Assembly: GCA_017307785.1 (NCBI GenBank)
Contig: JAFKGI010000012.1
Location: 128,001-184,330 of the forward strand
Source of the DNA: Vulcanimicrobiota bacterium
Lineage (GTDB): Bacteria; Vulcanimicrobiota; Xenobia; Xenobiales; JADMJV01
Reading direction: 5' to 3'
Length of the DNA stretch: 56,330 bases
This document shows positions 8,239-55,303 of this stretch, piece by piece (position 1 is the stretch's first letter; each line of letters starts with the position of its first letter). The notes under the pieces were generated by a model that did not search any database, was not told where the DNA came from, and saw only the letters and a program-made list of their open reading frames with translations. Made by a program: the position numbers and the translations under genes.

Positions 8239-8244
8239 TGTCGG

Positions 8245-9240
8245 CTACCTACCCCGTTGATTTTCCATGATAAAGTGGGCGACCAGATCGCGCGTAATCG
8301 CACTCATCTCCTCCGGAAAGGCGACGGCCACCGTAAAACGACCGTTCGCCTCCTCGTCGCAACGCACCACCCGAGCTTTGACTTGCAAAGGAAAATTCCA
8401 TGAGAGCACTCGGACTTCCAGTTCGCGACCCATATCGAAGCCGCGAGCCAGAGTCAAAGCCAGGCCGCCTTTACTGACGTCCCGGGTGTGGCCCGACATA
8501 GGAGGAATGCTCTTACCGGCCAGGCCGGGAATCTTCACTTCTACCGGAAGCTGCAGTTCAATGCGGAAATGCTGACGACCCCCTAAAGAATCTAGCTTCG
8601 ACTTCTCGGCCATCGACTTGAGTGGCCGCCCGACCAGGACCTGTTCAGGGTTCCCGGGTTTAACCCGGATGATGGGGCAGTCGTAGCTCACCTGGCGACG
8701 TTCGTCAAACATCACCAAGGAAAGCACTTCCTTGGGCGCAACGGGCAAGGGATCGTTCTCGCCCGGAACTCGAGCGACCCAAATGCCCTCCGCATCCGTC
8801 TTCAAAACCTTGACGTTCCAGCCGCGCGGGGTCGACGGTTGCTTCTCGGGAATCGCCCGCATGACCATGCCTGGCTGCAGCGGCTCGGGGGGCTCTTCCT
8901 GGCTGCGGCTCGGCGCGGGCGGAGGAGTGGGAGCCGGCTGCTGTTGCTGCCTGGGTGGCGGCGCAGGAGCCACCGGCGGTGGTGCCGGGGCTGCCAGCGG
9001 CGGAGTTTTGACCGGCTCGGACGGGGTTTCCATCAGGCTCATCCAGTCGTCCGAACTGGGCGGTGCCGCGGGTAGAACAGGGGGCGGAACGGGTGGAGCC
9101 ATAGCCGGCACCTTGACCATGGGAGGCGTCTCTACGGGAACGTTGACCGGAGCGGCCGGAGACTCCACAGGCTCGGGCACGACTTTAGAGACAGACTCTT
9201 CCGAGTCTGCCGGTGCCTTTTTCCGGAGCCAACCAAACAT
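8245..9240 (-). CDS. PilZ domain protein with Pro-rich N-terminal region
   Basis: RQHFRIEL (RxxxR) and DVSKGGLAL (D/NxSxGG) PilZ c-di-GMP motifs. Start chosen at MFGWLRKK (cat at 9238-9240). Confidence 0.65.
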   Translation of the reverse strand: MFGWLRKKAPADSEESVSKVVPEPVESPAAPVNVPVETPPMVKVPAMAPPVPPPVLPAAPPSSDDWMSLMETPSEPVKTPPLAAPAPPPVAPAPPPRQQQQPAPTPPPAPSRSQEEPPEPLQPGMVMRAIPEKQPSTPRGWNVKVLKTDAEGIWVARVPGENDPLPVAPKEVLSLVMFDERRQVSYDCPIIRVKPGNPEQVLVGRPLKSMAEKSKLDSLGGRQHFRIELQLPVEVKIPGLAGKSIPPMSGHTRDVSKGGLALTLARGFDMGRELEVRVLSWNFPLQVKARVVRCDEEANGRFTVAVAFPEEMSAITRDLVAHFIMENQRGR

Positions 9241-32351: not shown

Positions 32352-32645
32352 GTGGGGACCGTGTTGGCGATCTTCTTAACCCTGGTGGCCGTTTCCGCTC
32401 AGACTCTGGCCAATTACGCGCTACGAGACGAACGCTTCGTCCTGGGCGTGACCCTGCTGGCCTGTCATTTCGGGCTCTGGTGCCTGGCCCTGCGCCTGGC
32501 CCCCCTCACCGTGCTCATTCCCTGGACGGCCCTCAGTCACGTCCTCAATGCCTTGCTGGCCCGCGAACTGCTGCAAGAAAAAATCGGCCGGCGACGCTGG
32601 GCCGGCACCTTGCTCATCGCCTCGGGAATCGTGCTATGCAATTGA
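32352..32645 (+). CDS. EamA-like 4-TM small transporter subunit (ArnE-like)
   Basis: 97 aa, four hydrophobic helices. LQEKIGRRRWAGTLLIASGIVL parallels ArnE [23 protein letters not shown]. Confidence 0.55.
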   Translation: MGTVLAIFLTLVAVSAQTLANYALRDERFVLGVTLLACHFGLWCLALRLAPLTVLIPWTALSHVLNALLARELLQEKIGRRRWAGTLLIASGIVLCN

Positions 32646-32980
32646 GGACCGGACTGCTACTGGCCGCGCTGGCCATTTTTCTAAGCACCGAAGGCGACAT
32701 CCAGCTGGCTCTGGCCCTGCGCAAAATGGGCAGCTTCCACCTCTTCTACGCCCCCCTGTGGTTCGCCATCTTGCTGCTGGCCGCTCACTTCGCCGTCTGG
32801 CTGCAGGTGCTCAAGCGCCTGGAACTCTCGCTGGCCGTCCCCCTCACCGCCAGCTCCTACCTGCTCAACGCCCTGCTCGCCCCCGCCCAACTCTCCGAAA
32901 CCATGGGCGTCAAAAGCCTGGCCGGCTACGCCCTGGTCACCCTGGGGGTGGTGCTGGTCGTTTCCAGCGACGATCAATAA
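32636..32980 (+). CDS. EamA-like 4-TM small transporter subunit (ArnF-like)
   Basis: 114 aa paralogue that overlaps the upstream gene by 10 nt. Same topology. Confidence 0.55.
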   Translation: MQLRTGLLLAALAIFLSTEGDIQLALALRKMGSFHLFYAPLWFAILLLAAHFAVWLQVLKRLELSLAVPLTASSYLLNALLAPAQLSETMGVKSLAGYALVTLGVVLVVSSDDQ

Positions 32981-33309
32981 CTGCCGATCACCTCAATCAG
33001 CCCCACCAGGTGGTCGTTCATCTCGTCCAAATCCTCGGCCGGAATCCACCACTCGGTGTGCTGCTCTCCGCCCACGGTCTGCACCGCGTAGCGGTCCATG
33101 AATTCTCGCCGCACGAAAAACCGCGTCACATAACCCGCCCCATCGGCCGGCACATTCCATTTCACGGTAATCTCGCGCGCATACTCCTCATTGGTCACAG
33201 GATAGAAAAACGGCTGACCCAAAAGCCGCGGCGGCCAACGCCGAAAACCCGACTGCCGAACCAGCTCCAGCTCGGCCGGACCACAAGGACGAAAGCATTC
33301 CTGATGCAT
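32974..33309 (-). CDS. Hypothetical protein
   Basis: Start chosen at MHQECF to avoid overlap with the SNF2 start. The ORF extends to 33357. Confidence 0.35.
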   Translation of the reverse strand: MHQECFRPCGPAELELVRQSGFRRWPPRLLGQPFFYPVTNEEYAREITVKWNVPADGAGYVTRFFVRREFMDRYAVQTVGGEQHTEWWIPAEDLDEMNDHLVGLIEVIGSY

Positions 33310-33345
33310 AGAGGGCAGTATAGCACTCGCGTCGACATAAAGCCT

Positions 33346-35868
33346 ATGGCGGTCCAACTCACTCCCGGCGCAACCTTACGCCTGCCCGGCGACGGCGACT
33401 GGCGCGAGCTGCTGCTGGCCCTGGCCAGCGACCGCCCCTCCGAACCGGACCTGGCCTTCTGGCGCCTCTACGCCCGCCGCTACCTGACCAGCCTGTGCCA
33501 GCTCCCCCCAGGACAACAACCACCGATCCCCCCCGAAGCCGAACGCACACAGCTCAGCCAGAACGCTCCGCCCATGGAGGGCGGCGAATACCTCTCCCCC
33601 GACTCCCTGGCCCAAATCTGGACCCAGGTCGACCACTGGGTCCAACAGCAAATCGCCCAAGAAAGCCTCGACCACTTCCTCCAGGAGCACGCCCCGCGCT
33701 GGCGGCAAGTGGGCCGCGTCTACTTCCACCTGGCCGAAAACAAAGACAACGAAGAGCGGCCCTTCGCCTTCCTGGCCACCTACACCACCGGCCTCAGCCA
33801 GGGCGGCCGCCTGCAACACGTCCCCCTGAGAAAAAGCCTGGAGACCTACGCCGGCGAACGCAACCAGCAGGCCCTCATCAAGCTCCTCTCCCCCATCCAG
33901 AGGGCCGCCGAAAGCTGCCCCTGGGTCGACGAAATGCTGCAGTCCGGCCACATCTACCAGCCCCTGGCCTGGCCCATCGAAAAAGCCTACCAACTGCTTC
34001 GCAGCGCCCCCCAACTCGAAGAAGCCGGCCTCTCCATCCTGCTCCCCGACTGGTGGAAAAAACGCCCGCGTCCACGCGTAGCCGTCACCGTCGGCCCCAC
34101 TCCCGGCTCCGCCCTGGGCGCCGACGCCCTGCTGCAATTCCAGGTGCAAATCGCATACGACCAACAGAATCTCAGCCCCCAGGAAATCCAGGATCTGCTG
34201 GCCCAACAGAACCACCTGGTGCGCCTCAAAGGCCAGTGGGTGGAAGTCGACCGCGACAAACTGCAGCAGGCCCTCGATCACTGGAAATTGCTGGAAAGCG
34301 CCGGCCCCGTCTCCTTCCACGAAGGCATGCGCATGCTGGCAGGTGCCTCCCCCAACCTCAAGGACGACCCCAACGGCAGCCAGGAACGCGAATGGGTTCA
34401 CCTGCAGGCGGCCGATAGCCTGCGTCCCCTGCTTGAAGGTTCTCGCCCGCAGGATCTCCCCCCCGATCCCAACCTCAAAGCCGAACTGCGCCCCTACCAA
34501 AAGCAAGGCGTCGACTGGTTGCTTTTCCTCAGCCGCCTGGGCCTGGGCGCCTGCCTGGCCGACGACATGGGCCTGGGCAAAACCATCCAGGTGCTGGCCA
34601 CTCTGCTGGCCCAATCACAAGGCCCCTCGCTGCTGATCGTGCCCGCCTCGCTGCTGGGCAACTGGCGAGCCGAAGCCGCCCGCTTCGCCCCCAAACTCAA
34701 GCTCTACTTCGCCCACCCCTCCGAAACCAATCAATACGAACCGCAGCAAGCCGATCTGGTCCTCACCACCTACCCCCAGATCACCCGCCAACCATGGCTG
34801 CAGCAACAGAGCTGGCACCTGCTCATCCTGGACGAAGCCCAGGCCATCAAAAACGCCGGCACCCGTCAGAGTCAGACCGTCAAAAAGCTCCAGGCCACCT
34901 CTCGCATCGCCCTCACCGGCACGCCCGTGGAAAATCGCCTGGGCGATCTCTGGTCGCTCTTTGATTTTCTCAACCCCGGCCTCTTAGGTTCGGCCAAAGT
35001 CTTCTCGGACTGGGTCAAATCGCTCAACCACCAGTTCGCCCCGCTGCGCCAGCTGGTCGCCCCCTACATTCTCAGACGCCTGAAAACCGACCGCAAAGTC
35101 ATCTCCGACCTGCCCGACAAAACGGAAACACCCGCCTATTGCGGCCTCAGCAAGCCCCAGATCAAGCTCTACGAAAAGGTGCTGCAAACCCTGGCCAAAG
35201 CTCTGGAAAGCAAAACCGGCATCGCCCGCAAAGGCCTGGTGCTGCAATCGCTCATGCAGCTCAAGCAGATTTGCAATCACCCCAGCCAGTTCACCGGCGC
35301 CAGCGATTGGCTCCCCGCCGCCAGCGGCAAATTCCAGCGTCTCGGAGAACTGTGCCGCGAATTATCCGATCGTCAGCAACCGGTGCTTATCTTTACCCAG
35401 TTTCGCGAAATCATCGAGCCCCTGCACGATTACCTCACCAACATTTACCAGCGACCCGGCCTCGTGCTCCACGGCGGAACTGCCGTATCCAAACGACAAA
35501 AACTGGTGCAGCAATTCCAGGCCCCAGACGGCCCGCCTTTCTTCCTGCTCTCCCTCAAAGCCGGCGGCACCGGCCTCAACCTGACCCGCGCTTCCCACGT
35601 CATTCATTTCGACCGCTGGTGGAACCCGGCCGTGGAAAACCAGGCCACCGACCGGGCCTTCCGCATCGGCCAAAAAAACAACGTGCAGGTGCACAAGTTC
35701 ATCTGCCGCGGCACTTTGGAAGAAAAAATCGACGCCACCATCGCCGCCAAACAGAAACTCGCCCAAGAAATTCTGAGCGGCGATCAGGAAATCAACCTCA
35801 GCGAACTCTCCAACGACGAGCTGCTGCAACTCGTCTCTCTCGACGTTCGCCAGGCCAGTCTCGCGTGA
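33346..35868 (+). CDS. SNF2-family helicase (RapA/HepA-like) with N-terminal domain of unknown function
   Basis: LADDMGLGKTIQ (motif I), LILDEAQAIKN (DEAQ box), LTGTPVENRL, helicase-C FLLSLKAGGTGLNLT, QATDRAFRIGQ. Confidence 0.9.
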   Translation: MAVQLTPGATLRLPGDGDWRELLLALASDRPSEPDLAFWRLYARRYLTSLCQLPPGQQPPIPPEAERTQLSQNAPPMEGGEYLSPDSLAQIWTQVDHWVQQQIAQESLDHFLQEHAPRWRQVGRVYFHLAENKDNEERPFAFLATYTTGLSQGGRLQHVPLRKSLETYAGERNQQALIKLLSPIQRAAESCPWVDEMLQSGHIYQPLAWPIEKAYQLLRSAPQLEEAGLSILLPDWWKKRPRPRVAVTVGPTPGSALGADALLQFQVQIAYDQQNLSPQEIQDLLAQQNHLVRLKGQWVEVDRDKLQQALDHWKLLESAGPVSFHEGMRMLAGASPNLKDDPNGSQEREWVHLQAADSLRPLLEGSRPQDLPPDPNLKAELRPYQKQGVDWLLFLSRLGLGACLADDMGLGKTIQVLATLLAQSQGPSLLIVPASLLGNWRAEAARFAPKLKLYFAHPSETNQYEPQQADLVLTTYPQITRQPWLQQQSWHLLILDEAQAIKNAGTRQSQTVKKLQATSRIALTGTPVENRLGDLWSLFDFLNPGLLGSAKVFSDWVKSLNHQFAPLRQLVAPYILRRLKTDRKVISDLPDKTETPAYCGLSKPQIKLYEKVLQTLAKALESKTGIARKGLVLQSLMQLKQICNHPSQFTGASDWLPAASGKFQRLGELCRELSDRQQPVLIFTQFREIIEPLHDYLTNIYQRPGLVLHGGTAVSKRQKLVQQFQAPDGPPFFLLSLKAGGTGLNLTRASHVIHFDRWWNPAVENQATDRAFRIGQKNNVQVHKFICRGTLEEKIDATIAAKQKLAQEILSGDQEINLSELSNDELLQLVSLDVRQASLA

Positions 35869-37050: not shown

Positions 37051-37420
37051 CAACGCTCTCCTTTGCCACATAGCCCAGCGCCTCTCGCTCGGCAAACCAG
37101 GATTCGAACTCTCCCCGGTCCACGCTCTCGTCCCCGGGCCCGTGGAAAATGCGGGCCGGCGCGTCGTCCCGCAACTCGCTGCCCGGCTCGACTTCCTCGT
37201 CATAGGACCGAATCGGATTGTGAAAGTGCATCCGCTCCCCCTCCACCCGATTCAGCGTCAGCGAATGAAAGTCGCTCTGCCCCGCGAACCAGTGCAGGCT
37301 CAATAGCACGTCCTCGTTGCCCGCCTGCACCTGCCCCCACAACACCTGCGCATCGGCCTCGGGCACCAGCTCCGATCCCGTCACCGCCTGGTGCATCTTC
37401 AACAACTGCTGATCTCTCAT
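37037..37420 (-). CDS. Hypothetical protein
   Basis: 127-aa ORF in an operon-like string. No motif. Confidence 0.35.
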   Translation of the reverse strand: MRDQQLLKMHQAVTGSELVPEADAQVLWGQVQAGNEDVLLSLHWFAGQSDFHSLTLNRVEGERMHFHNPIRSYDEEVEPGSELRDDAPARIFHGPGDESVDRGEFESWFAEREALGYVAKESVDEQE

Positions 37421-38748
37421 TTCGCCTCCGCGCGGGACACTTCCTGAAGCGCTCGCTCCATGGTCTCCAAAATATGACTCAAAGAAGCCAGAGACGGCGT
37501 ATTGATCCAGGCCTCCAGACTGTCTACCCCGGCCTTTAGCTGCTCCAACTGCAAACCCAACCGCTCATCGCCGGGCACGGCCGCCAGCAGGCTGCGCCAG
37601 CGCTCCACCTCGGCTTCCATGCTGGCCCGATCCGACTTGCCGTCCGCATACTCCTGGGCCACCGCCTGCAGATAAGCCAGATTCGGGTTGACCCCCCCGC
37701 CCACTGCCGCCTCCGACAAATCGTGCTGCGCCTTCTCGTCCACCCGCTCCAACATACGAAACCCGCAGGCCGGACAAAACTTCTGACCGCCTTCGACGGT
37801 AGCGGCACACTTGGGACAGGCCAGCTGCCCCTGCACGTCCAGCAAGGCCAGCACTTCTTGACGCCTTTGACTCAGGTCTTCGTCGATCTCGCGAATGCCA
37901 TCCAGCGAAGCCTCCGGATCCTCCAGCAGGTTCTGCAACGCTTCCGTCAGCTCGGCAAAAAGAGCCTGCAACTCCTTGCCCTTCTCCTCCAAGAGCGCGC
38001 TATCCACCGTAGTCAAAAGCGCCGATACCCCTTGACTCAAAGAATGCAACTCGGCCAGTTTGCGCCACACGAAAGCGTGCAGCTCGGTGTCGTCCTGCGA
38101 CTGCAGCAACAAGTCCAGATGCTCCAACCAGTTGGCCGGCAGCGCCGGCCCCAGCAACTCCGCGTAGCCGTGAGCCAACCGCTGCACCTGATCCAGCTGG
38201 GCCTCGCTCTCGGATCCCGCCGCCAAACGCAGCAGCCCCTCCAAGGACTCCAGCAAAGCCTGAGCGCAACGACCCAACTCCACTTCCATCCCGGGCGTGT
38301 CGATGGCGTACTGCAAACGCCGGCGCTCGGTCTCGATGCAGTGCCAGTAAAACTCCTGGTCCCCACCGCCCATCCAGGACTCGTAGGCCCAGAACATCTG
38401 ATTGATACCGGCCAACGGAGTCGGCCCGTGGAGACGCCACACCTCTTCCTGGAACTGCTGCAGGTTCTGGGTGTGCTGACGATGCAGGCGTAAAAAGAGA
38501 CCGGCCAGCTGGGGGTCGATGGCCTGCTGCAGCTCGCTGGCCCCCTGCAAGCAGTCCTGGTATCCCTGACTCACCCGCTCTTCCAGCTCGTTCAGGTTCT
38601 CGCGCAGCTCCTCGGGCATGGCCAACAAATTGGAATGCCAGCTGGCGAAGTGCTCTTCCAGACCCTGGGAAAAGGCGGCGAAATCGGGCAAGTCGGCCTC
38701 GTTGCCGCTGGCAACGTAGGCCTCAAGACGGTCCTGGAAGGAGTTCAA
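37417..38748 (-). CDS. Hypothetical helical protein with zinc ribbon
   Basis: 443 aa, mostly predicted helical. CPKC...x12...CPAC zinc ribbon. ATGA overlap with the downstream gene. Confidence 0.45.
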   Translation of the reverse strand: MNSFQDRLEAYVASGNEADLPDFAAFSQGLEEHFASWHSNLLAMPEELRENLNELEERVSQGYQDCLQGASELQQAIDPQLAGLFLRLHRQHTQNLQQFQEEVWRLHGPTPLAGINQMFWAYESWMGGGDQEFYWHCIETERRRLQYAIDTPGMEVELGRCAQALLESLEGLLRLAAGSESEAQLDQVQRLAHGYAELLGPALPANWLEHLDLLLQSQDDTELHAFVWRKLAELHSLSQGVSALLTTVDSALLEEKGKELQALFAELTEALQNLLEDPEASLDGIREIDEDLSQRRQEVLALLDVQGQLACPKCAATVEGGQKFCPACGFRMLERVDEKAQHDLSEAAVGGGVNPNLAYLQAVAQEYADGKSDRASMEAEVERWRSLLAAVPGDERLGLQLEQLKAGVDSLEAWINTPSLASLSHILETMERALQEVSRAEAK

Positions 38749-41421: not shown

Positions 41422-42708
41422 TCAAGGAACGACCACGCCCACCTGATCCAGACCAGAAATGCCAAACCACAGGTTGCCGTCCGGCCCCGGATTGATGCCA
41501 TAAGGCCGCGACAAAGCGGTCAGTGCTGCAGAGGTAAACTCGCTCACCACACCGGTCTGCGTGATCCGCCCCAGCCGGCCTCCCTGGTACTCGGTAAACC
41601 AGAGGTTCCCGTCCGCTCCGGCACAGATGCCGACCGGCCTCGCCGCCGCGCTGATCCCCGAGGAGAACTCCGTAATCACACCGGCCGGGGTGATCCGCCC
41701 GATGCGATTCCCGCCGAACTCGGTGAACCACAGGTTGCCGTCCGGTCCCGCGCAAATCCCTTCGGGCGCGGACCCGGCCGTAATTCCAGTCGAGAACTCT
41801 GTCACCACCCCCGCGGTGGTGATACGTCCAATGCGATTCCCGCCGAAGTCGGTGAACCACAAATTACCATCCGGACCGCTGCAAATCTGGCTGGGGAGAG
41901 CTCCTCCGCTAATTCCCGCGGAAAACTCGGTGATGACGCCGGCAGGCGTGATGCGCCCGATGCGGCCGCTATTCTGCTCGGCGAACCAGAGATTTCCATC
42001 CGGTCCCGCACAAATTCCGTAAGGACCGCTTGCAGCCGTAAGTCCCGCCGAGAACTCGGTGACTACCCCGGCCGTCGTGATCCGTCCGATGCGGTTTCCG
42101 GCAATCTCGGTGAACCACAGATTCCCATCCGGTCCGGCGCAGATGACATAGGCCTGAGCGCCGCTGGTCAGGCCGGGAAATTCGGTGACAGCGCCACTAC
42201 TGGGATTCAACCGGCCAACCCGATCTCCGCCGTTCTCGATGAACCAGAGGTTGCCGTCGGGTCCCGCGCAAACGCCGGTTGGAGCAGCCCCTGCGGAAAT
42301 ACCGGTGCTCACGGCCTGAATGGTTCCGACGGGCGGAACCACCCGCAGGTTAGAGTTCGCACTCAGCCCACCGAAAGCCGCCGTAATTGTGGCCGACACC
42401 GCCGGAATCACCTGGGTCAGAGACTGGCCCGTGGCCAGGCCGCTGTTGGAAACCACACTGGCGGCCCCCGGATTGGAAGAAGTCCAGGTCGCCAGATTGG
42501 CCACGTTCGCACTCTGACCATCGCTGCTGGTAGCGGTCGCCACAAACTGCAGGGTCTCGCCCGAATGAATGCGGGCAGAAACGGGACTGACCGCCAAACC
42601 CGTCAGGGTCGGCAACGGGACGAAGCCCCGATCTCCACTCGTGCTACTGCCGCAGCCCAGTGCGAACAGCGCCAGACTTAAAATTGTCGTACGCAATGCA
42701 GAACTCAT
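41422..42708 (-). CDS. Vgb (streptogramin B lyase)-like 7-bladed beta-propeller lipoprotein with Big_2-like N-domain
   Basis: Lipobox LALFALGCGSS. The Big_2-like segment is LTGLAVSPVSARIHSGETLQFVATATSSDGQS. Seven repeats of ICAGPDGNLWFTE....IGRIT..G...EF. Confidence 0.75.
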   Translation of the reverse strand: MSSALRTTILSLALFALGCGSSTSGDRGFVPLPTLTGLAVSPVSARIHSGETLQFVATATSSDGQSANVANLATWTSSNPGAASVVSNSGLATGQSLTQVIPAVSATITAAFGGLSANSNLRVVPPVGTIQAVSTGISAGAAPTGVCAGPDGNLWFIENGGDRVGRLNPSSGAVTEFPGLTSGAQAYVICAGPDGNLWFTEIAGNRIGRITTAGVVTEFSAGLTAASGPYGICAGPDGNLWFAEQNSGRIGRITPAGVITEFSAGISGGALPSQICSGPDGNLWFTDFGGNRIGRITTAGVVTEFSTGITAGSAPEGICAGPDGNLWFTEFGGNRIGRITPAGVITEFSSGISAAARPVGICAGADGNLWFTEYQGGRLGRITQTGVVSEFTSAALTALSRPYGINPGPDGNLWFGISGLDQVGVVVP

Positions 42709-42874: not shown

Positions 42875-44146
42875 ATGAAATCAACCCTACGATCCGGCCT
42901 GCTGACCCTGGCCTTGCTGACCCTCGGATGCGGTGGCAGCACCTCGGACAACCTGGGTGTGCAAACCCCGACCCTCGCCTCCCTGACCGTAACCCCCGCG
43001 TCGGCCCGCCTCCTTTCCGGACAGACCCTGCAATTCACGGCCACCGCCACCGCCAGCGACGGACGCAGCGGCGACGTCACCTCCCTATCCACCTGGGCCT
43101 CCTCCAACAACTCGGCCGTCACCATCGTCGGCAACACCGGCCTGGCCACCGCCCAATCCATCACCCAGGTCGTGCCCGCCCTCACCGCCACCATCACGGC
43201 CGCCTTCCAGAACCTCAACGCCAGCACCAGCCTCAGACTGATCCCGGCCACGGGCACCATCCAGCGTCTCACCACCGGCCTCACCGCCGCCGCCGGCCCC
43301 ACCTGCATCTGCACGGGCCCCGACGGCAATCTCTGGTTCACCGAAAACGGCACCAGCAGCATCGGCCGAATCAACCCGACCACCGGAGAGATCACGGAAT
43401 TTTCCGGCCTGAGCGGAGTCCGCCGGCCCAACTTCATCTGCGCCGGACCGGACGGCAACCTCTGGTTCACCATCGGCAGCATCGACCGCATTGGCCGCAT
43501 CACCCCCGCCGGCGTGATCACCGAATTCTCCACCGGCATCTCCGCCAAGTCCTACCCCTACGGCATCTGTGCCGGTCCCGACGGCAACCTCTGGTTCACC
43601 GAAATCGACACCAACCTCATCGGCCGCATTACCCCGGCCGGAGTGGTCACCGAATTTCCCGTCCCCACGGCCGGCGTCGAACCGTTCCAGATTTGCAGCG
43701 GCCCGGACGGCAACCTGTGGTTCACCGAGCATGTCGGAAATCGCATCGCCAAAATCACCACCGCCGGCGTGGTCACGGAATTCTCCGGCCTCACCGCCAA
43801 CAGTGGCCCCGACGGAATCTGCGCCGGCCCCGACGGCAACCTCTGGTTCACCGAAAGAGACCGCGACGCCATCGGCCAGATCACCACCGCCGGCGTCATC
43901 AGCGAATTTAGCGCCGGCATCACCGCCGGCGCCTTGCCCCACACCATCACCCCCGGACCCGACGGTAATTTCTGGTTTGTCGAACTGGCCGGCCGCATCG
44001 GACGCATCACCCCCGGCAGCGATGTCACCGAATTCACCGGCCCCCTCACCAACAACTCGATTCCCTTCGCCATCACCCCCGGACCCGACGGCAATCTCTG
44101 GTTCACCGAACTGGTCGGAAATTCGGTCGACGTCCTCGTCCCCTAA
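42875..44146 (+). CDS. Vgb-like beta-propeller lipoprotein (paralogue, divergently transcribed)
   Basis: AAGGAG 5 nt before the ATG. LALLTLGCGGS lipobox, Big_2-like segment, and the same GPDGNLWFTE/IGRIT repeat seven times. Confidence 0.75.
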   Translation: MKSTLRSGLLTLALLTLGCGGSTSDNLGVQTPTLASLTVTPASARLLSGQTLQFTATATASDGRSGDVTSLSTWASSNNSAVTIVGNTGLATAQSITQVVPALTATITAAFQNLNASTSLRLIPATGTIQRLTTGLTAAAGPTCICTGPDGNLWFTENGTSSIGRINPTTGEITEFSGLSGVRRPNFICAGPDGNLWFTIGSIDRIGRITPAGVITEFSTGISAKSYPYGICAGPDGNLWFTEIDTNLIGRITPAGVVTEFPVPTAGVEPFQICSGPDGNLWFTEHVGNRIAKITTAGVVTEFSGLTANSGPDGICAGPDGNLWFTERDRDAIGQITTAGVISEFSAGITAGALPHTITPGPDGNFWFVELAGRIGRITPGSDVTEFTGPLTNNSIPFAITPGPDGNLWFTELVGNSVDVLVP

Positions 44147-46739: not shown

Positions 46740-48022
46740 TCCAAATCCAGGACGAAAACGGCCTCAGCCTCTGGCCCGAGCAACTCATCGTTTCCATCAC
46801 CCCCGCCTACCCCAACCGCCTGTGCGTCACCTGCGCGGACGGAACCGTCGGCTACATGCCCCACCCCATCCCCCCGGACTGGCCCAGCTCCACAGAATAC
46901 CAGCCCGAGCCTCACTGGGGCCTGCTACGCACTCCCGACGCCCTGCTCTGGGACGGCAGCCAGCTCTGCCTGCAAAGCCTGGAGGAAGCCACTCAGAATC
47001 TCTTCCAGGCCGGCCGCCACCTCTGGCTCCATCCCCGCCGCATACGCCGCGTCAGCAAACAAAGCGGCGGCCTGCTGCTTCTCACCGATGAAGGCACCGA
47101 ACTCGTCATCACCCCCCACTGGAGCCAGCAAGTGCTGAAGGCCCTGCACATCCCTTACCTCCCCGACGCCCCCAGCGGACCCTTTCTGCGCGACTATCCC
47201 TTCGAACTCGCCCGCGCCTCGGCGGCCGTCCTGCGCCAACACTTCGCCGACCCCAACACCCTCATCGCCAACCTCATCTGGCAACAACTCGTCTACCACC
47301 AGAGCGGCATCCACAAGGGCTACGGCACCAGCCCCCGAGGCTTCTGGTACGTCCCCGGGGCGGCCACCCTGGCCCGCCTCGGCAGCATCAGCGCCCATCA
47401 AGCGGAAATGATCTACTACCGCCTGCTCGTCAAACTCATCGACGACGATCGCCTCTTCGGCTACCGCGACCTTGGCTTCGCGGACCCCGGCGCCGACAGT
47501 CGAGAAATCGGCACCCACCACCCCGGCATCCTTCTGGTCATCGAAAAAACCGACCTGGCCAAAACTGGTGTCGCCGCCGCCCGCCACTTCGGCCTCAGCT
47601 GGCACATCACCGGCGGAATCTCCCGCCTGTTCACCGCCGAATTCTGCGCCTACGCCCTCCAACAAGCCGGCCAACAAAGCCTGCGCACCCTCATCTTCGG
47701 CGACTACGACCCCGGCGGCCGCGTCAACGGCCGAGCCATCGTGGCCCACCTCGACCGCTTCGGCACCCCCACCCCCGCCGGCCCCGAATTCCTCATCGAC
47801 GCCTCCGCCTTCACCGAAGAAGAACTCGAACTCTTCTCCCATCCCCTCAGCCAGGACGACGAACGCGTCCAAAAATGGCTCCAAGAAACCGGCGGAATCC
47901 ACGGCCAACCCAACGGCATCCACGCCGACTGGCTTCAGCCCCCCGAACGCCTCCTCCCCCTGATCGAGGCCAAACTTAGCCTGGCAGCTCCGGCGGCGCC
48001 ACCAGCCGACTCCGCACCTTGA
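46736..48022 (+). CDS. Gene B: single-module paralogue of gene A with intact TOPRIM-like motifs
   Basis: 428 aa. ATGA overlap with gene A. GILLVIEKTDL ... LIFGDYDPGGRVNGRAI ... ETGGIHGQPNGIHADWLQP. The N-region aligns to both A modules (SITPAYPNRLCVTCADGTVGY vs SIMPTYPDRWRIVLQDGRVGH). Confidence 0.6.
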   Translation: MIQIQDENGLSLWPEQLIVSITPAYPNRLCVTCADGTVGYMPHPIPPDWPSSTEYQPEPHWGLLRTPDALLWDGSQLCLQSLEEATQNLFQAGRHLWLHPRRIRRVSKQSGGLLLLTDEGTELVITPHWSQQVLKALHIPYLPDAPSGPFLRDYPFELARASAAVLRQHFADPNTLIANLIWQQLVYHQSGIHKGYGTSPRGFWYVPGAATLARLGSISAHQAEMIYYRLLVKLIDDDRLFGYRDLGFADPGADSREIGTHHPGILLVIEKTDLAKTGVAAARHFGLSWHITGGISRLFTAEFCAYALQQAGQQSLRTLIFGDYDPGGRVNGRAIVAHLDRFGTPTPAGPEFLIDASAFTEEELELFSHPLSQDDERVQKWLQETGGIHGQPNGIHADWLQPPERLLPLIEAKLSLAAPAAPPADSAP

Positions 48023-49541
48023 CCTCCACCTCACTGCGCCGCGTCGCCCAGGCCGGAAACGGAAACGTCACCACCAGCGGCAACGGCACTTCCGGCTGAG
48101 CCACAATCATCGTCCCCGGCGCCAACAACGTCGCCCGCCGCCGCAAACTCTCGCCCAACCAGGCATACTGCTCGCGCGCCGCCTCCGCCGATTCCAAGCG
48201 GCCCACCACGCGCAGCGCCGAATTCCCCACCACCCGCTCCTCCACTTGAGAAGCCGTCTGCTCCGCCCCTACCAGCACCACTCCCAGACTACGCCCGCGT
48301 TCGGCCACATCCAACAACATCTGACGAATGGCATCGCCTCCATCGCGAGGCGCATACTTATTCAACTCGTCCACCATCAAATAGGTGGTGGGAAACCCGT
48401 CCGGCATCGACTCCCGCGCCAGAAACACCGTCTGCAGAACCGCCCCCAGCACAAAGGCCCTGGCCCGATCCGAAAGCCGATGCACATCCACCACATTCAT
48501 CTGCCCCTCAAACGGATCAAACCGCCCCTCGGCCCCGACCAATCCCGCAATCTGCGGACCCAACGCCTTCAAACGCCGCGCCAACGCCCGCCGAGTCGGC
48601 GTGGTCACATTCTCATACCACTTGCTATCGGCCTTGCCAGACTCCGCAATCAAAAACTGCACCAGCCCCGCCATATCGCTCACCGACTGCCCACCCAGCA
48701 ACAAACCAGAACCCTCGGAAACGGACGCAGCCTCACGCAAACACTCCAGCAACCGCTCCACTCCGAATTCCATCACCCCGGTCTGTTCCGTATCCGCCAG
48801 CAAATAGCGCAAAAACTCCCGTTCGGCAAACTCGCGCAACGTCCACAACGGCCGGCTCACCCCATGAAAAACAACCTCAGAAAACGGCTCGCATGGCAAC
48901 TCCAACTGCTCATAAACCGCCCGCTGCTCCGCGCTCAAGCGGGCATTCGGACGATCCAAATACAACAAATCATCGCCCTTCACATTGAACAAAATGGCCC
49001 GCGAATTTCGCCCCGCCTCGCTCTGAAACAAGCTGTAGAGCAAAAACAAAGCATAACTCGTCTTGGTGGCCACCCCGGAAATCCCGGCAATGTTCACGTG
49101 AGCCCCCTTCACCCCGGAAAGAAAGTCCACATTCGCATAGGCCGCCATCCCATTTCTCATCACCCCAACCGGAATACGCCGAGTCATCGAATCAAAGCGC
49201 ATCGCCCAATTCACATTTGCCACCGAACAACGCTTTACCGACATCCCTGGCAAGGGCGGCAAATAAACCTCCGGATACGTCCGAATCACTCTCACCAAAG
49301 CCCGATAATGCTTGCCCACCCCGATGGCATCCACCACCCCGAAATGCCCCACCCAGCCCACATTCTCTACCTTCCGCCAGGTCTCCACCACCGCCCCCAG
49401 CTCCAGCTCCTGCGGCGAACGCACCTCCACCGTAAACTCCAGCGGCGACGCCACCGGCCGCGCGGAAACAACCATCGGAAACCCTGCATCATCACTCATC
49501 CCCGCCCATTCGCCCCGCCCCCTCAGACCTCCCGCGCCCAA
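47976..49541 (-). CDS. Gene C: HerA/DUF87-like P-loop ATPase
   Basis: N-terminal barrel-like region, P-loop variant HVNIAGISGVATKTSYAL, Walker B TTYLMVDELNKYAP (cf. HerA hhhDEAHxxxP). 47-nt convergent overlap with gene B. Alternative starts at 49499 or 49475. Confidence 0.55.
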   Translation of the reverse strand: MGAGGLRGRGEWAGMSDDAGFPMVVSARPVASPLEFTVEVRSPQELELGAVVETWRKVENVGWVGHFGVVDAIGVGKHYRALVRVIRTYPEVYLPPLPGMSVKRCSVANVNWAMRFDSMTRRIPVGVMRNGMAAYANVDFLSGVKGAHVNIAGISGVATKTSYALFLLYSLFQSEAGRNSRAILFNVKGDDLLYLDRPNARLSAEQRAVYEQLELPCEPFSEVVFHGVSRPLWTLREFAEREFLRYLLADTEQTGVMEFGVERLLECLREAASVSEGSGLLLGGQSVSDMAGLVQFLIAESGKADSKWYENVTTPTRRALARRLKALGPQIAGLVGAEGRFDPFEGQMNVVDVHRLSDRARAFVLGAVLQTVFLARESMPDGFPTTYLMVDELNKYAPRDGGDAIRQMLLDVAERGRSLGVVLVGAEQTASQVEERVVGNSALRVVGRLESAEAAREQYAWLGESLRRRATLLAPGTMIVAQPEVPLPLVVTFPFPAWATRRSEVEVKVRSRLVAPPELPG

Positions 49542-49582: not shown

Positions 49583-52500
49583 ATGGCGGGTGGAGCAAAT
49601 TTCGGATTCCTGGAACAACACGATCCCCAGCTCATGCACCTGGCCCAGCGCGCCGAACGCTACCTGGCCGACGACCCCAACACCTGCCTCATCAAATTGC
49701 GCCAATTCGGCGAATTGCTCATCAAGCACGTAGCCGCCCAGCACCGCCTTCAGGAAGCCGAGAACTTCGCCGCCACCATCCATCTGCTCCAACGCGAAGG
49801 CGTCCACGCCAGCGTCATTCAGGGCTTCCACGACCTGCGCCGGGCCGGCAATGACGCCGTCCACGGCTTCCGCGGCGACCACCAAGAAGCACTGCTCAAA
49901 CTCAAAACCGCCCGCGCCATGGGCACCTGGTATCACCGCGTCACCAAAGACCGCAGCTTCGAACCCGGCCCCTTCGTCCCGCCCCCCAGCGACGACGAAC
50001 AACTCCAGCAACTCCAGGACCAGCTCCAACAAGCCCTGCTGGAAAAACAACGCGCCCAGAACGTCGCCGAAACCGAAGCCCAGGCCCGCGCCCAGGCCGA
50101 ACTCAAAGCCTTGCAGGCGGCCGAAGAAGCCGCCAGCTGGAAAAGCCTGGCCGAAGAAACCACCTCACCAACCCCTGTGGCCACCGTCCCCCTCGAGGAG
50201 CTCAAAACCGCCACCGCCCAACAACCCCTCGACGAAGACGAAGCCGACACGCGCATCAAAATCGACGCCCAACTGCGCGCCGCCGGCTGGCAGGTGGACA
50301 GCGTCGAGCTCCGCTACGCCAAAGGCGCCCGCCCCCAGCAAGGCAAAAGCCTGGCCATCGCCGAGTATCCCACCCCCAAAGGACCAGCCGACTACGTCCT
50401 CTTCCTGGGCCTCACCCCGGTCGCCATCGTCGAGGCCAAGCGCAAAACCAAAGACGTCTCGGCCAGCCTGGAACAAGCTCGCCGCTATGCCAAAGCCCTG
50501 CCCGACCCCATCCCCTTCCTCTTTGCCACCAACGGCCGCCCCTACCTCAGACAGCTGATCGAGAAAAGCGGCGTCTGGTTCCGCGACGAACGCCGTCCCC
50601 AAAACCGCGCCCACGCCCTCAAAGACTGGTACACCCCCAAAGGCCTGGAAGCTCTACTCGCCCAGGACCTCGACCAGGCCCACCAAAAGCTCGAAAAAGA
50701 GCCTTTCGCCTACCTGCAACTACGCGACTACCAGATCCAGGCCATCCAATCGGTGGAAGCCGCCATCGCCGAAGGCAAACAGGACATCCTGCTGGCCATG
50801 GCCACCGGCACCGGCAAAACCCGCACCGCCATCGGCCTCATCTACCGCCTGCTCAAAAGCAAACGCTTCCGCCGCATCCTCTTCCTGGTCGACCGAACCG
50901 CCCTGGGCAACCAGAGCTTCAACGCCTTCGAGCACTTCCGCCTGGAACAAAACCAGACATTCACCGAGACCTACGACGTCAAGTCCCTGGGCGACGTCAC
51001 CCCCGACGAAACCACCAAAGTCCACATCGCCACCATCCAGGCCACCATCCAACGAGCCCTGGAAAGCGACGAGGCCAACGCCCCCGTCGACCAGTACGAC
51101 TGCATCCTGGTCGACGAATGCCATCGTGGCTACAGCCTGGATCGCGAACTCACCGACAACGAGCTCACCTACAAAAACGAGCAAGACTACATCTCCCAAT
51201 ACCGCCGCGCCCTCGACCACTTCGACGCTGTGCGCATCGGCCTCACCGCCACTCCCGCCCTGCACACCACCGAAATCTTCGGCCCGCCCATCTTCCTCTA
51301 CAGCTACCGCCAGGCCGTCATCGACGGCTACCTGGTCGACCACGAACCCCCCCTGCAAATCGTCACCAAACTTGCTCAAGATGGCATGGTCTGGCCCGCC
51401 CAGTCAGAGATGCTCCTCTACAACACCCAAACCCAAATGCCAGAAACCACCTGGCTACCCGACGAAGTCAAAATCGACCTGGAAAAGTTCAACAAGACCG
51501 TCCTCACCGAGAACTTCAATCAGGCCGTCTGCCAGGAACTGGCCCGCCACATTGACCCCACCCTGCCCGGCAAAACCCTGGTCTTCTGCGCCACCGACCT
51601 GCACGCCGACATGGTCGTACGCCTGCTCAAAGAAGCCTTCGAAGACGCTCCCGAACAGGCGGTCGTCAAAATCACCGGCGCCTCCGACAAACCCAACGAA
51701 CTCATCCGCCGCTTCAAAAACGAACAATACCCCAGCGTGGCCGTCACCGTCGACCTGCTCACCACCGGCGTCGACGTCCCGCAGATCTGCCACATCGTCT
51801 TCCTGCGCCGCGTCAAAAGCCGCATTCTCTACCAACAAATGATCGGCCGCGCCACCCGCCTGTGCAAAGACTTCCTCAAAGAAAGCTTCCACATCTACGA
51901 CGCCGTCGAACTCTACAAAGACATGGACGAGTTCTCCGACATGAAGCCGGTGGTGGTCAACCCCAAAACCACCGTCGAGCAGCTGGTGCGCGAACTCACC
52001 ACCGCCCCCGAAGAGGCCCGCCACGAAGTCTTAGACCAGCTGCTCGCCAAACTCCAGCGCAAAAAACGCAGCCTCCAGGGCAACACCTTCCAAGAACTCG
52101 CCGGCCAGACCTTAGCCGACCTCATCGAGCAACTGCGCGGCCAGACCCCCGAACAAGTCGCCACCTACTTCGGCGAACGCTTCGCCCTGGTCAGCTACCT
52201 CGACACCCACAAACCCAACCCCGCCCTCTATGTCGTCTCCACCCACGAAGACGAAGTCGCCTACACCGCCCAAGGCTTCGGCCCCGGCAACCAGCCCCCG
52301 GCCGACTACTTAGAAGGCTTCGCCCACTTCATCCAACAAAACCTCAACGAAGTCGCCGCCCTCACCCTGGTCACCCAACGCCCCAGAGACCTCACCCGCG
52401 AAGACCTCCGCCAATTACGCCTCCTCCTGGATAACGCCGGCTTCTCCGAAACCCAACTCAAAGCCGCCTACCGCAGAACCACCAACCAGGACATCGCCGC

Positions 52501-52801
52501 CAGCATCATCGGATTCATCCGCCAAAAAGCCCTCGGCTCCCCCCTCATCCCCTACGAAGAACGCGTCGACAAAGCCCTCAAAAAGGTCCTCTCCACCCGC
52601 CCCTGGACCGACCCCCAACGCAAATGGCTCGACCGCATCGCCAAACAGCTCAAAAAAGAAGTCATCGTCGACCACCACGCCCTCGATCAAGGCGAATTCG
52701 CCGCCCACGGCGGCTTCCAAACCATCAACAAAAAACTCGACGGCCAGCTCGCCAACCTCCTGGCCCAGTTCCAAGACGCCATCTGGGACGACGTCGCCTG
52801 A
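49583..52801 (+). CDS. hsdR: Type I restriction enzyme R subunit with DUF4145-like N-terminal domain
   Basis: EADTRIKIDAQLRAAGW (HsdR N-motif), LLAMATGTGKTRTAI (Walker A), ILVDECHRG (DECH), helicase C-domain QMIGRATR. About 200 aa N-terminal extension: FGFLEQHDPQLMHLAQRAERYL... Confidence 0.9.
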   Translation: MAGGANFGFLEQHDPQLMHLAQRAERYLADDPNTCLIKLRQFGELLIKHVAAQHRLQEAENFAATIHLLQREGVHASVIQGFHDLRRAGNDAVHGFRGDHQEALLKLKTARAMGTWYHRVTKDRSFEPGPFVPPPSDDEQLQQLQDQLQQALLEKQRAQNVAETEAQARAQAELKALQAAEEAASWKSLAEETTSPTPVATVPLEELKTATAQQPLDEDEADTRIKIDAQLRAAGWQVDSVELRYAKGARPQQGKSLAIAEYPTPKGPADYVLFLGLTPVAIVEAKRKTKDVSASLEQARRYAKALPDPIPFLFATNGRPYLRQLIEKSGVWFRDERRPQNRAHALKDWYTPKGLEALLAQDLDQAHQKLEKEPFAYLQLRDYQIQAIQSVEAAIAEGKQDILLAMATGTGKTRTAIGLIYRLLKSKRFRRILFLVDRTALGNQSFNAFEHFRLEQNQTFTETYDVKSLGDVTPDETTKVHIATIQATIQRALESDEANAPVDQYDCILVDECHRGYSLDRELTDNELTYKNEQDYISQYRRALDHFDAVRIGLTATPALHTTEIFGPPIFLYSYRQAVIDGYLVDHEPPLQIVTKLAQDGMVWPAQSEMLLYNTQTQMPETTWLPDEVKIDLEKFNKTVLTENFNQAVCQELARHIDPTLPGKTLVFCATDLHADMVVRLLKEAFEDAPEQAVVKITGASDKPNELIRRFKNEQYPSVAVTVDLLTTGVDVPQICHIVFLRRVKSRILYQQMIGRATRLCKDFLKESFHIYDAVELYKDMDEFSDMKPVVVNPKTTVEQLVRELTTAPEEARHEVLDQLLAKLQRKKRSLQGNTFQELAGQTLADLIEQLRGQTPEQVATYFGERFALVSYLDTHKPNPALYVVSTHEDEVAYTAQGFGPGNQPPADYLEGFAHFIQQNLNEVAALTLVTQRPRDLTREDLRQLRLLLDNAGFSETQLKAAYRRTTNQDIAASIIGFIRQKALGSPLIPYEERVDKALKKVLSTRPWTDPQRKWLDRIAKQLKKEVIVDHHALDQGEFAAHGGFQTINKKLDGQLANLLAQFQDAIWDDVA

Positions 52802-52886: not shown

Positions 52887-53258
52887 TTAAGCCGAGGCCC
52901 CGCGATTCTTTCTGGGGAGACCGGTGAACTTCTTCAGCAACGAAGGTTCTTCCAAAAACTCCAGAATTCGCGCAGCCGAGCGCGACGGATTTCGAAGCCC
53001 CTGCTCCCAACTACTGACCGCGTCCGTCGACACCCCCACCACTCGAGCAAGAAACGCCTGACTGTAACCCAGCTGCTCGCGCAGCTGCCGAACGCCCGCT
53101 GCACCATAAACCTTTGGAGGATCAGGCACTTCGACTTCTCGCGTTTTCAGGCTGATCTTGCCCTGCTCGAAAGCCAGAACCTCCTCGAGCCCCTGCAGAA
53201 TCTCGCTAGCAACGCTAGAGCGTTTTTTCATCGTGACCACTCCTTCTTTTGACTTCAA
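52887..53258 (-). CDS. HigA-like antitoxin (XRE-family HTH)
   Basis: LREQLGYSQAFLARVVGVSTDAVSSWEQGLRNPS helix-turn-helix. Lies downstream of and overlapping the toxin gene. Region GC is lower than the surroundings. Confidence 0.7.
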   Translation of the reverse strand: MKSKEGVVTMKKRSSVASEILQGLEEVLAFEQGKISLKTREVEVPDPPKVYGAAGVRQLREQLGYSQAFLARVVGVSTDAVSSWEQGLRNPSRSAARILEFLEEPSLLKKFTGLPRKNRGASA

Positions 53259-53583
53259 GTTGTATCGCTTCCGCCAGAGAACGAAAGGCCTTTTTGTCGT
53301 CTGAACTCAGGTCGTCGCATTCATCCTTACTGTAGAGCGTGAGGAGATAGATTCTTTTAGCCGCAACAATCGGCAGATAGACGATGCGCAAACCGCTGCG
53401 CTTACCTTTGCCCCTGGCGCTCTCCGCCCATCGAATCTTGCGTATGCCACCACACCCCGGGATAACGACTCCAACCTCCGGATTCCTGACCAGCTCCTCC
53501 TGAAACCTGGCAAACTCGTCATCTCGCGACATCAGCTTGAGAAGCTTCTGCGTAAAGATGCGAGTTTCTACAAAAAGATACAC
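53215..53583 (-). CDS. HigB-like (RelE/ParE superfamily) toxin
   Basis: GKGKRSGLRIVYLPIVAAKRIYLLTLYSKDECDDLSSDDKKAF matches the GKsGGyRvIY...IYLLxIYxKxExxDLs killer-protein motif. The toxin-first gene order is HigBA-like. Confidence 0.65.
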   Translation of the reverse strand: MYLFVETRIFTQKLLKLMSRDDEFARFQEELVRNPEVGVVIPGCGGIRKIRWAESARGKGKRSGLRIVYLPIVAAKRIYLLTLYSKDECDDLSSDDKKAFRSLAEAIQLEVKRRSGHDEKTL

Positions 53584-53896: not shown

Positions 53897-55303
53897 ATGT
53901 CACTCGTCGCCCCAACCCAAGACATCGTCGCCAAACTCTGGAACCTCTGTCACGTCCTGCGCGACGACGGCATCACCTACCACGAATACGTCACCGAGCT
54001 CACCTACCTGCTCTTCCTCAAAATGGCCCAGGAGACCAAAAAAGAAGACCAGTTGCCGCCCCACTACCGCTGGGCCGACCTCGCCTCCAAAGACGGCATC
54101 GAACAGCTCGACTTCTACCGCGCCATGCTCCTCCACCTCGGCACCGACTCCGAGTCCCCCCGCGTGCGCGCCATCTTTGCCAACGCCAACAGCGCCCTGC
54201 GCGCCCCCAAAAACCTCAAAACCCTCACCGACAGCATCAACAGCCTCGACTGGTACAGCGCCCGCAGCGAAGGCCTCGGCGACCTCTACGAAGGCCTGCT
54301 CGAGAAGAACGCCAACGAAACCAAATCCGGCGCCGGCCAATACTTCACCCCAAGACCCCTCATCGACACCATCGTCCACCTCATGGATCCCCAACCCGGC
54401 GAACTCATCCAGGACCCCGCCTCCGGCACCGGCGGCTTCCTCATTGCCGCCAACCGCCACATCCGCGAAAAAACCGACGACCTCTTCGAACTCAAAGAAG
54501 ACCAACAATACTTCCAGCGCAACCGCGCCATCTACGGCATGGAACTCGTCCCCGACGTCCAACGCCTCGCCCTCATGAACCTCATGCTCCACGACCTCGA
54601 CTCCGACATCACCCTCGGAGACGCCCTCAGCCCCGACGGAGCCAACCTCCCCAAAGCCGACCTCATCCTCACCAACCCACCCTTCGGCTCCAAAAAAGGC
54701 GGCGGCCTCCCCACCCGCGACGATTTTACCTATCCCACCTCCAACAAACAATTAGCCTTCCTCCAGCACATCTACCGAGGACTAAAACCCGGAGGCCGCG
54801 CCGCCGTCGTCCTCCCCGACAACGTCCTCTTCGAAGGCAACGTCGGCGCCAAAATCCGCGCCGACCTCATGGAAAAAACCAACCTCCACACCATCCTCCG
54901 ACTCCCCACCGGCATCTTCTACGCCCAAGGAGTCAAAACCAACGTCCTCTTCTTCACCCAAGGAACCCCCACCACCACCACCTGGATCTACGACCTCCGA
55001 ACCAACATCCCCCAATTCGGCAAACGCACCCCCCTCACCCGAGGCCACTTCGCCGACTTTGAAACCGCCTACCACAACCGCACCGATCAAGGAGAAACCG
55101 GCCGCCTCCGCCCCTACACCCGCGACCAGATCCGCGACCGCGGCGAAAACCTCGACATCACCTGGCTCCGCGACGAAAACGCCGACCACGCCGACGACCT
55201 CGGCGAACCCGCCGAGATTGCCGCCGAGATCATGTCGAATCTCCGGACCGCAATGGAAGAAATGGAAGCGCTGATGGAAGCTCTTGAGGGTGGCAAAAGT
55301 TAA
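53897..55303 (+). CDS. hsdM: Type I restriction-modification N6-adenine DNA methyltransferase subunit
   Basis: N-terminus IVAKLWNLCHVLRDDGITYHEYVTELTYLLFLKM parallels EcoKI HsdM. FTPRPLIDTIV (motif I region), LILTNPPFG (NPPF, motif IV). The upstream extension in the ORF track is rejected. Confidence 0.9.
   Translation: MSLVAPTQDIVAKLWNLCHVLRDDGITYHEYVTELTYLLFLKMAQETKKEDQLPPHYRWADLASKDGIEQLDFYRAMLLHLGTDSESPRVRAIFANANSALRAPKNLKTLTDSINSLDWYSARSEGLGDLYEGLLEKNANETKSGAGQYFTPRPLIDTIVHLMDPQPGELIQDPASGTGGFLIAANRHIREKTDDLFELKEDQQYFQRNRAIYGMELVPDVQRLALMNLMLHDLDSDITLGDALSPDGANLPKADLILTNPPFGSKKGGGLPTRDDFTYPTSNKQLAFLQHIYRGLKPGGRAAVVLPDNVLFEGNVGAKIRADLMEKTNLHTILRLPTGIFYAQGVKTNVLFFTQGTPTTTTWIYDLRTNIPQFGKRTPLTRGHFADFETAYHNRTDQGETGRLRPYTRDQIRDRGENLDITWLRDENADHADDLGEPAEIAAEIMSNLRTAMEEMEALMEALEGGKS

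Follow-up and report, generated by a model that had tools for sequence, protein, structure and literature searches.

HerA rings recur as motors, both in DNA repair and in several anti-phage complexes that were solved recently, and Toprim proteins of the Top6A/Spo11 type do the cutting in topoisomerase VI, in the formation of meiotic breaks and in Wadjet. In the HerA protein of Deinococcus radiodurans (drHerA) the Walker A motif sits between β1 and α1, where K175 pairs with the β-phosphate of ADP and T176 coordinates Mg2+; mutants of K175 and of D487/E488 lose both ATPase and resection activity (PMC9960219). The protein is a weak Mg-ATPase that performs better with Mn2+, DNA and NurA, and its ATP hydrolysis is stimulated about 70-fold by NurA plus dsDNA (PMC9960219). 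For the Top6A/Spo11 type, the M. mazei Top6A protein serves as reference, with the catalytic Y106, R102 four residues upstream, and the Toprim residues E202, D254 and D256 (PMC13040014). Mini-A and Topo VIII, type IIB homologues of mobile elements, are stand-alone or mobile-element Top6A-like proteins with conserved R..Y and E/DxDxxG residues and without the N-terminal half of the 5Y-CAP domain; Mini-A has no identified ATPase partner (PMC7671362). Here, we analysed a stretch of 56,330 nucleotides from a Vulcanimicrobiota bacterium (assembly GCA_017307785.1, contig JAFKGI010000012.1, positions 128,001 to 184,330), hereafter the window, in which a HerA-family gene (gene C) lies beside two genes of a Top6A/Spo11-like family (genes A and B). 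The P-loop of gene C is an ordinary one and already known. What is new is a NurA-less HerA paralogue that is recurrently encoded beside a rare Top6A/Spo11-like family, which itself seems to keep the catalytic tyrosine.

Gene C belongs to the bacterial HerA family, drHerA type, of the HerA/FtsK superfamily, in agreement with the original prediction of a HerA-like ATPase. Its best match among solved structures, and the sole strong one, is drHerA (7f6d/7wrw/7wrx, E=7e-91). The AlphaFold model of the protein (pLDDT 89) consists of a beta-rich part (residues 1–115) followed by an alpha/beta core, and Foldseek places it closest to 7wrw_A (E 5e-52, TM 0.90), followed by the archaeal HerA structures 4d2i and 9x1l and then by HerA proteins from defence systems. 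A word-indexed protein search with gene C yielded 7,878 proteins at E <= 0.001 among 8,000 scored candidates. The Pfam and NCBIfam libraries gave no match to gene C, and the PADLOC models, run on C, A and B, gave weak matches only (mad8, E 8e-11; HerA, E 7e-6 and 0.004, the latter two covering the C-terminal part only; JetD, E 0.03); a literature search for the mad8 component of MADS turned up nothing usable. The mechanically derived reading frame (47976..49541, minus strand) reaches back to a TTG at 49541 and is shortened at its start in the annotation adopted here (Table 1).

The family falls into two size classes, namely proteins of ~553–570 aa in classical operons and a clade of ~485–520 aa that includes gene C and whose members, where annotated, derive from Eremiobacteraeota or Vulcanimicrobiota. 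A locus with relatives of the 553-aa class (L009) illustrates the classical arrangement: it encodes, in order, a 310-aa protein, HerA, a Metallophos protein (Mre11/SbcD-like) and an SbcC/Rad50-like protein, and the 310-aa protein (L009_310) matches drNurA (7f6d_H, E 6e-24). Metagenomic relatives at ~40% identity to gene C have NurA within 6 kb; the scan of JGI metagenomes returned mostly such NurA-linked distant relatives, along with three short contigs with close relatives that were uninformative on partners. No NurA was found in the 56-kb window by tblastn with the bacterial NurA L009_310, and gene C is directly flanked by A/B and HsdR. In a further locus, L011, a canonical NurA and a second HerA (40% identity) are encoded 4 kb from the short-clade copy (coordinates 1..1418 and 5471..8557). 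As this locus carries a second, canonical HerA, the short clade represents a paralogue and not the organism's only HerA. A gene pair for an AAA ATPase plus S8 peptidase separates the NurA–HerA pair of L011 from its pair of short-clade HerA and B homologue. Gene C is hence assigned to a shortened (~490 aa) paralogue clade, mainly from Eremiobacterota, that has lost the operon NurA of canonical HerA. The C-terminal tails of gene C (47979..48041, minus strand) and of its closest relatives P0002–P0010 share a loose proline-rich motif, e.g. APPELP, GPELP, PPPEQP or GPERP, which is situated past the conserved PFPAWATRRSEVE and may act as a short docking motif.

Genes A and B gave no Pfam or NCBIfam match, TP6A_N and Toprim included, and their assignment is based on fold and motif. 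Modelled with AlphaFold, B resembles topoisomerase VI subunit A (2zbk_A, match values 11.5 and 232; 1d3y_B, 11.4 and 210), the MksG nuclease of a Wadjet-type system (8b7f_B, 10.5 and 166) and Spo11 (8uru_A, 9.3 and 214), while its N-terminal part matches a LytTR DNA-binding domain (3d6w_B, 7.5 and 82). Residue counts were taken over 182 family members, with totals per column as aligned. The putative catalytic tyrosine Y205 is found in 159 of 166 sequences and R201 in 140 of 166; in the Toprim domain, E270 and K271 are each present in 171/175, D323 in all 168 and D325 in 167 of 168. The Toprim glutamate and DxD pair of Top6A/Spo11 proteins are thus both present in B. Gene A duplicates the module: its N-terminal copy is degenerate (Y to Q, EK to PH, no DxD) and its C-terminal copy retains Y, EK and DxD. 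Alignment of the B family to 120 archaeal Top6A sequences with hhalign gave a weak match (probability 8.9%, E 0.0037) that is nevertheless collinear, placing R201/Y205 on R102/Y106 (LREMYY), E270 on E202, and D323/D325 on D254/D256. A two-sequence Top6A/Spo11 template returned nothing, the weak match being obtained with the 120-sequence Top6A alignment only. Judged by these motifs, the B family appears to retain the catalytic tyrosine.

The B family is rare. It comprises 38 clusters (90% clustering) among 5.8 billion proteins, mostly from Eremiobacterota; an exhaustive profile search extended it to 686 clusters at the 50% level, and a scan of GTDB genomes for B revealed only 6 loci. No phage relative was detected by tblastn in 50,697 phage records, and a Foldseek search of BFVD returned LytTR domains only, with no relative at the level of the Toprim domain. 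Neither of the usual motors of this protein class was seen. No gene for a Top6B/GHKL ATPase adjoins A or B, either in the window or in those related loci that were examined, and the genes flanking A and B gave no Pfam match to SMC or kleisin proteins; a match to JetD was marginal (E 0.03).

What adjoins the B-family genes in six loci is a short-clade HerA: the window, L011, L012, L017, L021 and L007. In the window C and B are convergent with a 47-nt overlap, and L011, whose proteins are 75% and 61% identical to those of the window, is likewise convergent with an overlap of 53 nt. B precedes C in the same direction in L012 (8-nt gap) and L021 (gap of about 20 nt), C is divergent from an A-B pair in L017, and in L007 C overlaps by 4 nt a downstream gene for a 226-aa homologue of the N-terminal half of B. 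As both families are rare and the six adjacencies are independent, chance is hard to credit as the cause.

Based on these observations we propose that gene C encodes an active HerA translocase (see below for its catalytic residues) coupled to a Top6A-like partner that cleaves DNA, possibly as a means of defence, a reading that we give about an even chance of being correct. The HerA ring would supply ATP-driven threading of DNA, and A and B together would form the DNA-binding and DNA-cleaving part via their LytTR-like, CAP-like and Toprim domains, with A contributing a double module of one presumably dead and one live half, and B an intact R-x3-Y plus E/DxD site. Such an arrangement would be analogous to HerA with NurA, to the SMC motor with JetD in Wadjet, and to Top6B with Top6A. 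Restriction of foreign DNA by a chromosomal defence-island module is the most likely role, because the module adjoins a type I restriction-modification operon and a toxin-antitoxin pair. Family membership, the conservation of the motif and of the catalytic residues, the absence of NurA and the repeated C–B neighbourhood are observed, and we infer the physical interaction of A/B with C, the cleavage of DNA and the role in defence. A stronger version of the proposal sees in A and B true relatives of Top6A/Spo11 that act as tyrosine transesterases and whose ATP-driven partner is a HerA hexamer, in place of a GHKL Top6B or an SMC complex; they would thereby form a previously undescribed HerA–Top6A machine of bacterial defence islands that cleaves DNA or alters its topology. 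We regard this version as tentative, with perhaps one chance in four of holding. If the catalytic tyrosine is retained, the pairing would be a new motor-blade combination and a tractable bacterial system in which to study how an ATPase licenses a Spo11-like site; if the machine is real, it might also explain which partner Mini-A and other stand-alone Top6A-like proteins rely on.

Several observations weigh against the proposed machine. The profile link between B and Top6A is weak, and the equivalence of the tyrosines rests on motif register and fold. HerA is missing from about half of the B-family loci that were examined: A-B pairs occur without it in L015, L041 and the P0131 locus, and B-like genes in L019, L023 and L016/L020. 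In L016 (7001..13092), the ATPase genes between two B-like genes encode a STAND-like/AAA_16 and a ParA-like protein, not HerA, which suggests that the Top6A-like module can pair with other ATPases. Short-clade HerA is encoded alone in L005 and L014; the ATPase of L005 is positioned between an integrase and an RPA-type replication gene, a setting that fits the pumping of mobile-element DNA equally well. Finally, Pfam, NCBIfam and PADLOC recognised no defence system at the locus. The partnership of HerA with A/B is therefore described as facultative, as in many modular nuclease-NTPase systems. Two further candidates in these loci were rejected: the 476-aa neighbour of the B-like genes in L016 is AAA_16/STAND-like and not a HerA, and the 842-aa neighbour in L005 did not hold up as a homologue of A. 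Genes for Ser/Thr kinases are found upstream of the cluster of B-like and ATPase genes in L016.

These loci also carry the strongest rival to the proposal, namely that gene C stands alone, as a mobile-element translocase or as a repair paralogue, and pumps or resects DNA by itself or with a distant partner, its adjacency to A/B reflecting nothing but co-residence in variable islands. Possible parallels are the transfer of integrative and conjugative elements by the FtsK-like TraB and transjugation by Thermus HepA, mutants of which are defective in DNA donation and competence (PMC5448004). In L005/L006 the ATPase gene is framed by a tyrosine integrase and by RPA replication and HTH_17 excisionase-like genes, with no B homologue, and both the solitary ATPase of L014 and the A-B pairs without C speak for the same reading. 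Conversely, co-residence accounts poorly for six independent C–B adjacencies, in varied orientations, between two rare families, and the co-directional genes of L012, L021 and L007, spaced by no more than about 20 nt or overlapping by 4 nt, are typical of co-translated partners. Moreover, the surroundings in the window are chromosomal, with no integrase, tRNA gene or plasmid genes. We consider an independent translocase possible but rather unlikely, with roughly one chance in four.

The second alternative concerns the overlap of C and B. The original prediction of convergent coding ends sharing 47 nt is borne out by the stop codons at 47976–47978 and 48020–48022, and it was further suggested that antisense or collision effects may couple expression. 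In this alternative, antisense pairing or polymerase collision would couple or mutually limit the expression of the ATPase and A/B. The overlap leaves no room for an intergenic terminator, and a scan for terminators and promoters around it gave counts no higher than in shuffled sequence. L011 shows the same convergent topology at 61–75% protein identity, and the strand bias at the third positions of C agrees with that of the surrounding DNA strand, from which the arrangement is taken to be old. However, elsewhere the orientation of B homologues relative to the ATPase varies from convergent to divergent to co-directional (L012, L021, L017 and L007 being co-directional or divergent), so the convergent overlap is not required by the system. 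The overlapped codons also fall in C-terminal tails that are conserved weakly or not at all in the two proteins. B is conserved up to about L414 (nt 47977) and most B homologues stop 2–6 residues later, whereas B in the two convergent loci extends by 14–16 non-conserved residues; the last 15 residues of C, beyond PFPAWATRRSEVE, hold only the loose P-E-L-P-like motif common to its closest relatives. The window and L011 show no sequence relationship in their overlaps, and 14–15 extra codons before a stop would be unremarkable in DNA of roughly 62% GC. The overlap thus probably arose incidentally, B reading on into the sequence antisense to the tail of C where GC-rich DNA offers few stops, and a regulatory function appears improbable.

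The catalytic residues of gene C bear on the activity that the proposed machine would need. A regular-expression search of the whole protein found no canonical [AG]xxxxGK[ST], and the deviant motif GISGVATKTS is present in its place, as had been noted. It is no product of chance or of a wrong frame; the start is shifted to ATG 49475. The family profile of gene C aligns to solved HerA proteins other than drHerA only from Walker B onward, and the P-loop was therefore placed via drHerA and the secondary structure of the model. drHerA contains an identical stretch, NISGISGVATKTSYALFLL, whose Lys and Thr, counted from the alignment, are K175 and T176. In the model of gene C, a strand (126–130) is followed by a 7-residue loop (131–137) and a helix from K138; as the motif lies between this strand and the helix, GISGVATKTS occupies the P-loop. 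Compared to GxxGxGKT, Ala-Thr replaces the Gly that precedes Lys in GxxGxATKT and Lys is one position further from either glycine. The loop is consequently one residue longer (7 residues vs. 6), and not one residue short as first described.

The motif is common to the family. Among the best 120 of the 7,878 homologues, 119 carry G[IVM]SG[VI]ATKT and only three contain a canonical Walker A at any position. Across 30 aligned sequences, with identities down to 45%, G131, S133, G134, A136, T137, K138 and T139 are invariant, as are F163, N164, V165, K166 and D169. GxSGxATKT is accordingly best read from these alignments as the ancestral, family-wide Walker A of the bacterial HerA lineage, a signature rather than a lesion. 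Walker B was correctly described as canonical for HerA, and D369/E370 are invariant in the same alignment, together with R395 (in ERGRSLG) and Q406 (ERGRSLG...GAEQTAS). An arginine finger and a Gln sensor-1 mark the HerA/FtsK clade (PMC10853773), and R395 and Q406 are the putative counterparts in gene C. The invariance of the catalytic elements beyond the P-loop argues for an active enzyme, and gene C is predicted to be a catalytically competent hexameric dsDNA translocase. Altered nucleotide handling by the loop is possible; drHerA works better with Mn2+ than with Mg2+, a property that is not known to be tied to the loop. By itself the P-loop matters little, being the normal Walker A of a family already solved with ADP, but it is worth recording for bacterial HerA as motif-based annotation and Pfam miss such proteins entirely.

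The weakest alternative, a regulatory pseudo-ATPase whose deviant P-loop abolishes or strongly alters hydrolysis and leaves a nucleotide-sensing scaffold, can draw on the misfit to [AG]xxxxGK[ST], on a model confidence that is lowest in the core at residues 131–140 (block pLDDT 74) and on the weak stand-alone ATPase activity reported for the bacterial homologues drHerA and Thermus HepA, but is highly improbable given that the identical drHerA motif binds ADP via K175/T176, that drHerA hydrolyses ATP and is dead upon mutation of K175 or Walker B (PMC9960219), and that the family-wide invariance of Lys, Thr, catalytic Asp, Walker B DE, Arg finger and sensor Gln indicates selection for catalysis.

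On its other side gene C is divergent, across a gap of 107 bp, from a type I restriction-modification operon in which a toxin-antitoxin pair is inserted (Table 1). The domains of HsdR include DUF4145 at the N-terminus and EcoEI_R_C at the C-terminus. Other short-clade loci contain genes for AIPR, DUF4411, the pair of AAA ATPase plus S8 peptidase, transposases, or an integrase. The rest of the window is ordinary chromosome, with genes for PGI, PRPP synthetase and a histidine kinase, and a tRNA scan gave no tRNA gene. Strand bias is extreme from 42000 to 56330: plus-strand genes show a third-position GC skew of −0.57 to −0.77 and an AT skew of +0.26 to +0.7, and gene C on the minus strand mirrors these values on its own coding strand (+0.64 and −0.67). 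The mirror image implies that the bias follows the DNA strand and not transcription. Cumulative GC skew falls monotonically over the whole window. A gene for a Vgb-lyase-like beta-propeller protein on the minus strand departs from this pattern, with a third-position GC skew of −0.04 vs. about +0.6 expected, which suggests a recent inversion or acquisition; a paralogue lies nearby.

Table 1. Genes A, B and C, sequence elements of C, and other features of the window (window coordinates).
Feature	Position	Strand	Details
Gene A, 829 aa	44250..46739	+	Tandem duplication of the B module; 4-nt overlap with the start of B
Gene B, 428 aa	46736..48022	+	LytTR-like N-terminal beta domain; helical CAP-like domain (R201-x3-Y205); Toprim domain (E270-K271, D323-x-D325-P-x-G)
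Gene C, HerA-family ATPase, 499 aa	47976..49475	-	ATG 49475 start, from gene callers and the identical database protein P0001
3' overlap of C and B, 47 nt	47976..48022		C tail ...RLVAPPELPG; B tail ...AAPAAPPADSAP
Deviant Walker A GISGVATKTS, residues 131-140 of C	49056..49085	-	K138/T139 correspond to drHerA K175/T176
FNVKGDDL of C, end of strand beta2	48966..48989	-	Putative catalytic acid D169 corresponds to drHerA D220 (alignment to 7f6d_B)
Walker B YLMVDELNKYAP, residues 365-376 of C	48348..48383	-	D369/E370 correspond to drHerA D487/E488
AERGRSLGVVLVGAEQTAS of C, putative HerA/FtsK-type arginine finger region and sensor glutamine	48249..48305	-	R395, Q406 invariant
HsdR, type I restriction enzyme R subunit	49583..52801	+	PRK11448, 1421 bits (NCBIfam); Pfam ResIII, EcoEI_R_C
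RelE-like toxin and HTH_3/MqsA-like antitoxin	52887..53532	-	Inserted between hsdR and hsdM
HsdM methyltransferase	53897..55303	+	hsdS next, runs off the window
Vgb-lyase-like beta-propeller gene	41422..42708	-	
Paralogue of the Vgb-lyase-like gene	42875..44146	+	
SNF2-family helicase with DUF3670, near zinc-ribbon protein	32548..35868 and 37417..38748	+ and -	

Compared to known systems, gene C is closest to drHerA (7WRW, 7WRX, 7F6D). Homology is full-length at about 35% identity, the family profile aligning over positions 4–491, and both proteins share the HAS-barrel plus RecA-like fold as well as identical GISGVATKTS, DELNKYAP (Walker B), ERGRSLG and C-terminal PFPAWATRR motifs. Gene C lacks about 120 residues of drHerA through deletions that affect the HAS barrel, the region following the P-loop helix and the helical-bundle insert. 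Unlike the bacterial NurA–HerA end-resection complex, it has no nurA, mre11 or rad50 nearby, and its clade is found in variable or defence-type contexts and not in a repair operon. The defence systems SIR2-HerA and DUF4297-HerA resemble the locus in that a HerA hexamer and an effector are encoded next door to each other in a defence island, and their HerA proteins have a similar fold (Foldseek E about 1e-18 to 1e-19, TM about 0.6). Still, identity to gene C is 12–14%, sequence similarity is confined to the C-terminal half, the PADLOC HerA models match weakly and the locus encodes no Sir2 or DUF4297 effector.

B conserves an R-x3-Y in apparent register with that of Top6A/Spo11, together with the Toprim Glu and DxDPxG, and its spacing from Glu to DxD is nearly that of M. 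mazei Top6A (53 vs. 52). It differs by an extra N-terminal LytTR-like region, by a shorter distance from Tyr to the Toprim Glu (65 residues vs. 96) and by its genomic company, which is the fused dead-plus-live double module of gene A instead of a Top6B/GHKL gene. JetD/MksG of the Wadjet/MksBEFG systems has no catalytic tyrosine in its CAP-equivalent domain (PMC10123090), whereas the B family keeps a putative one; the Wadjet motor is an SMC complex, and the motor gene beside B encodes a HerA ring. Relative to Mini-A and Topo VIII, B is about 130 residues longer owing to the LytTR-like N-terminus, is encoded on bacterial chromosomes and not in viruses, and carries GIHADWL in place of xWELDAL as its C-terminal box. 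Within this range of architectures, the gene C system is a variant of the theme of a HerA ring plus effector.

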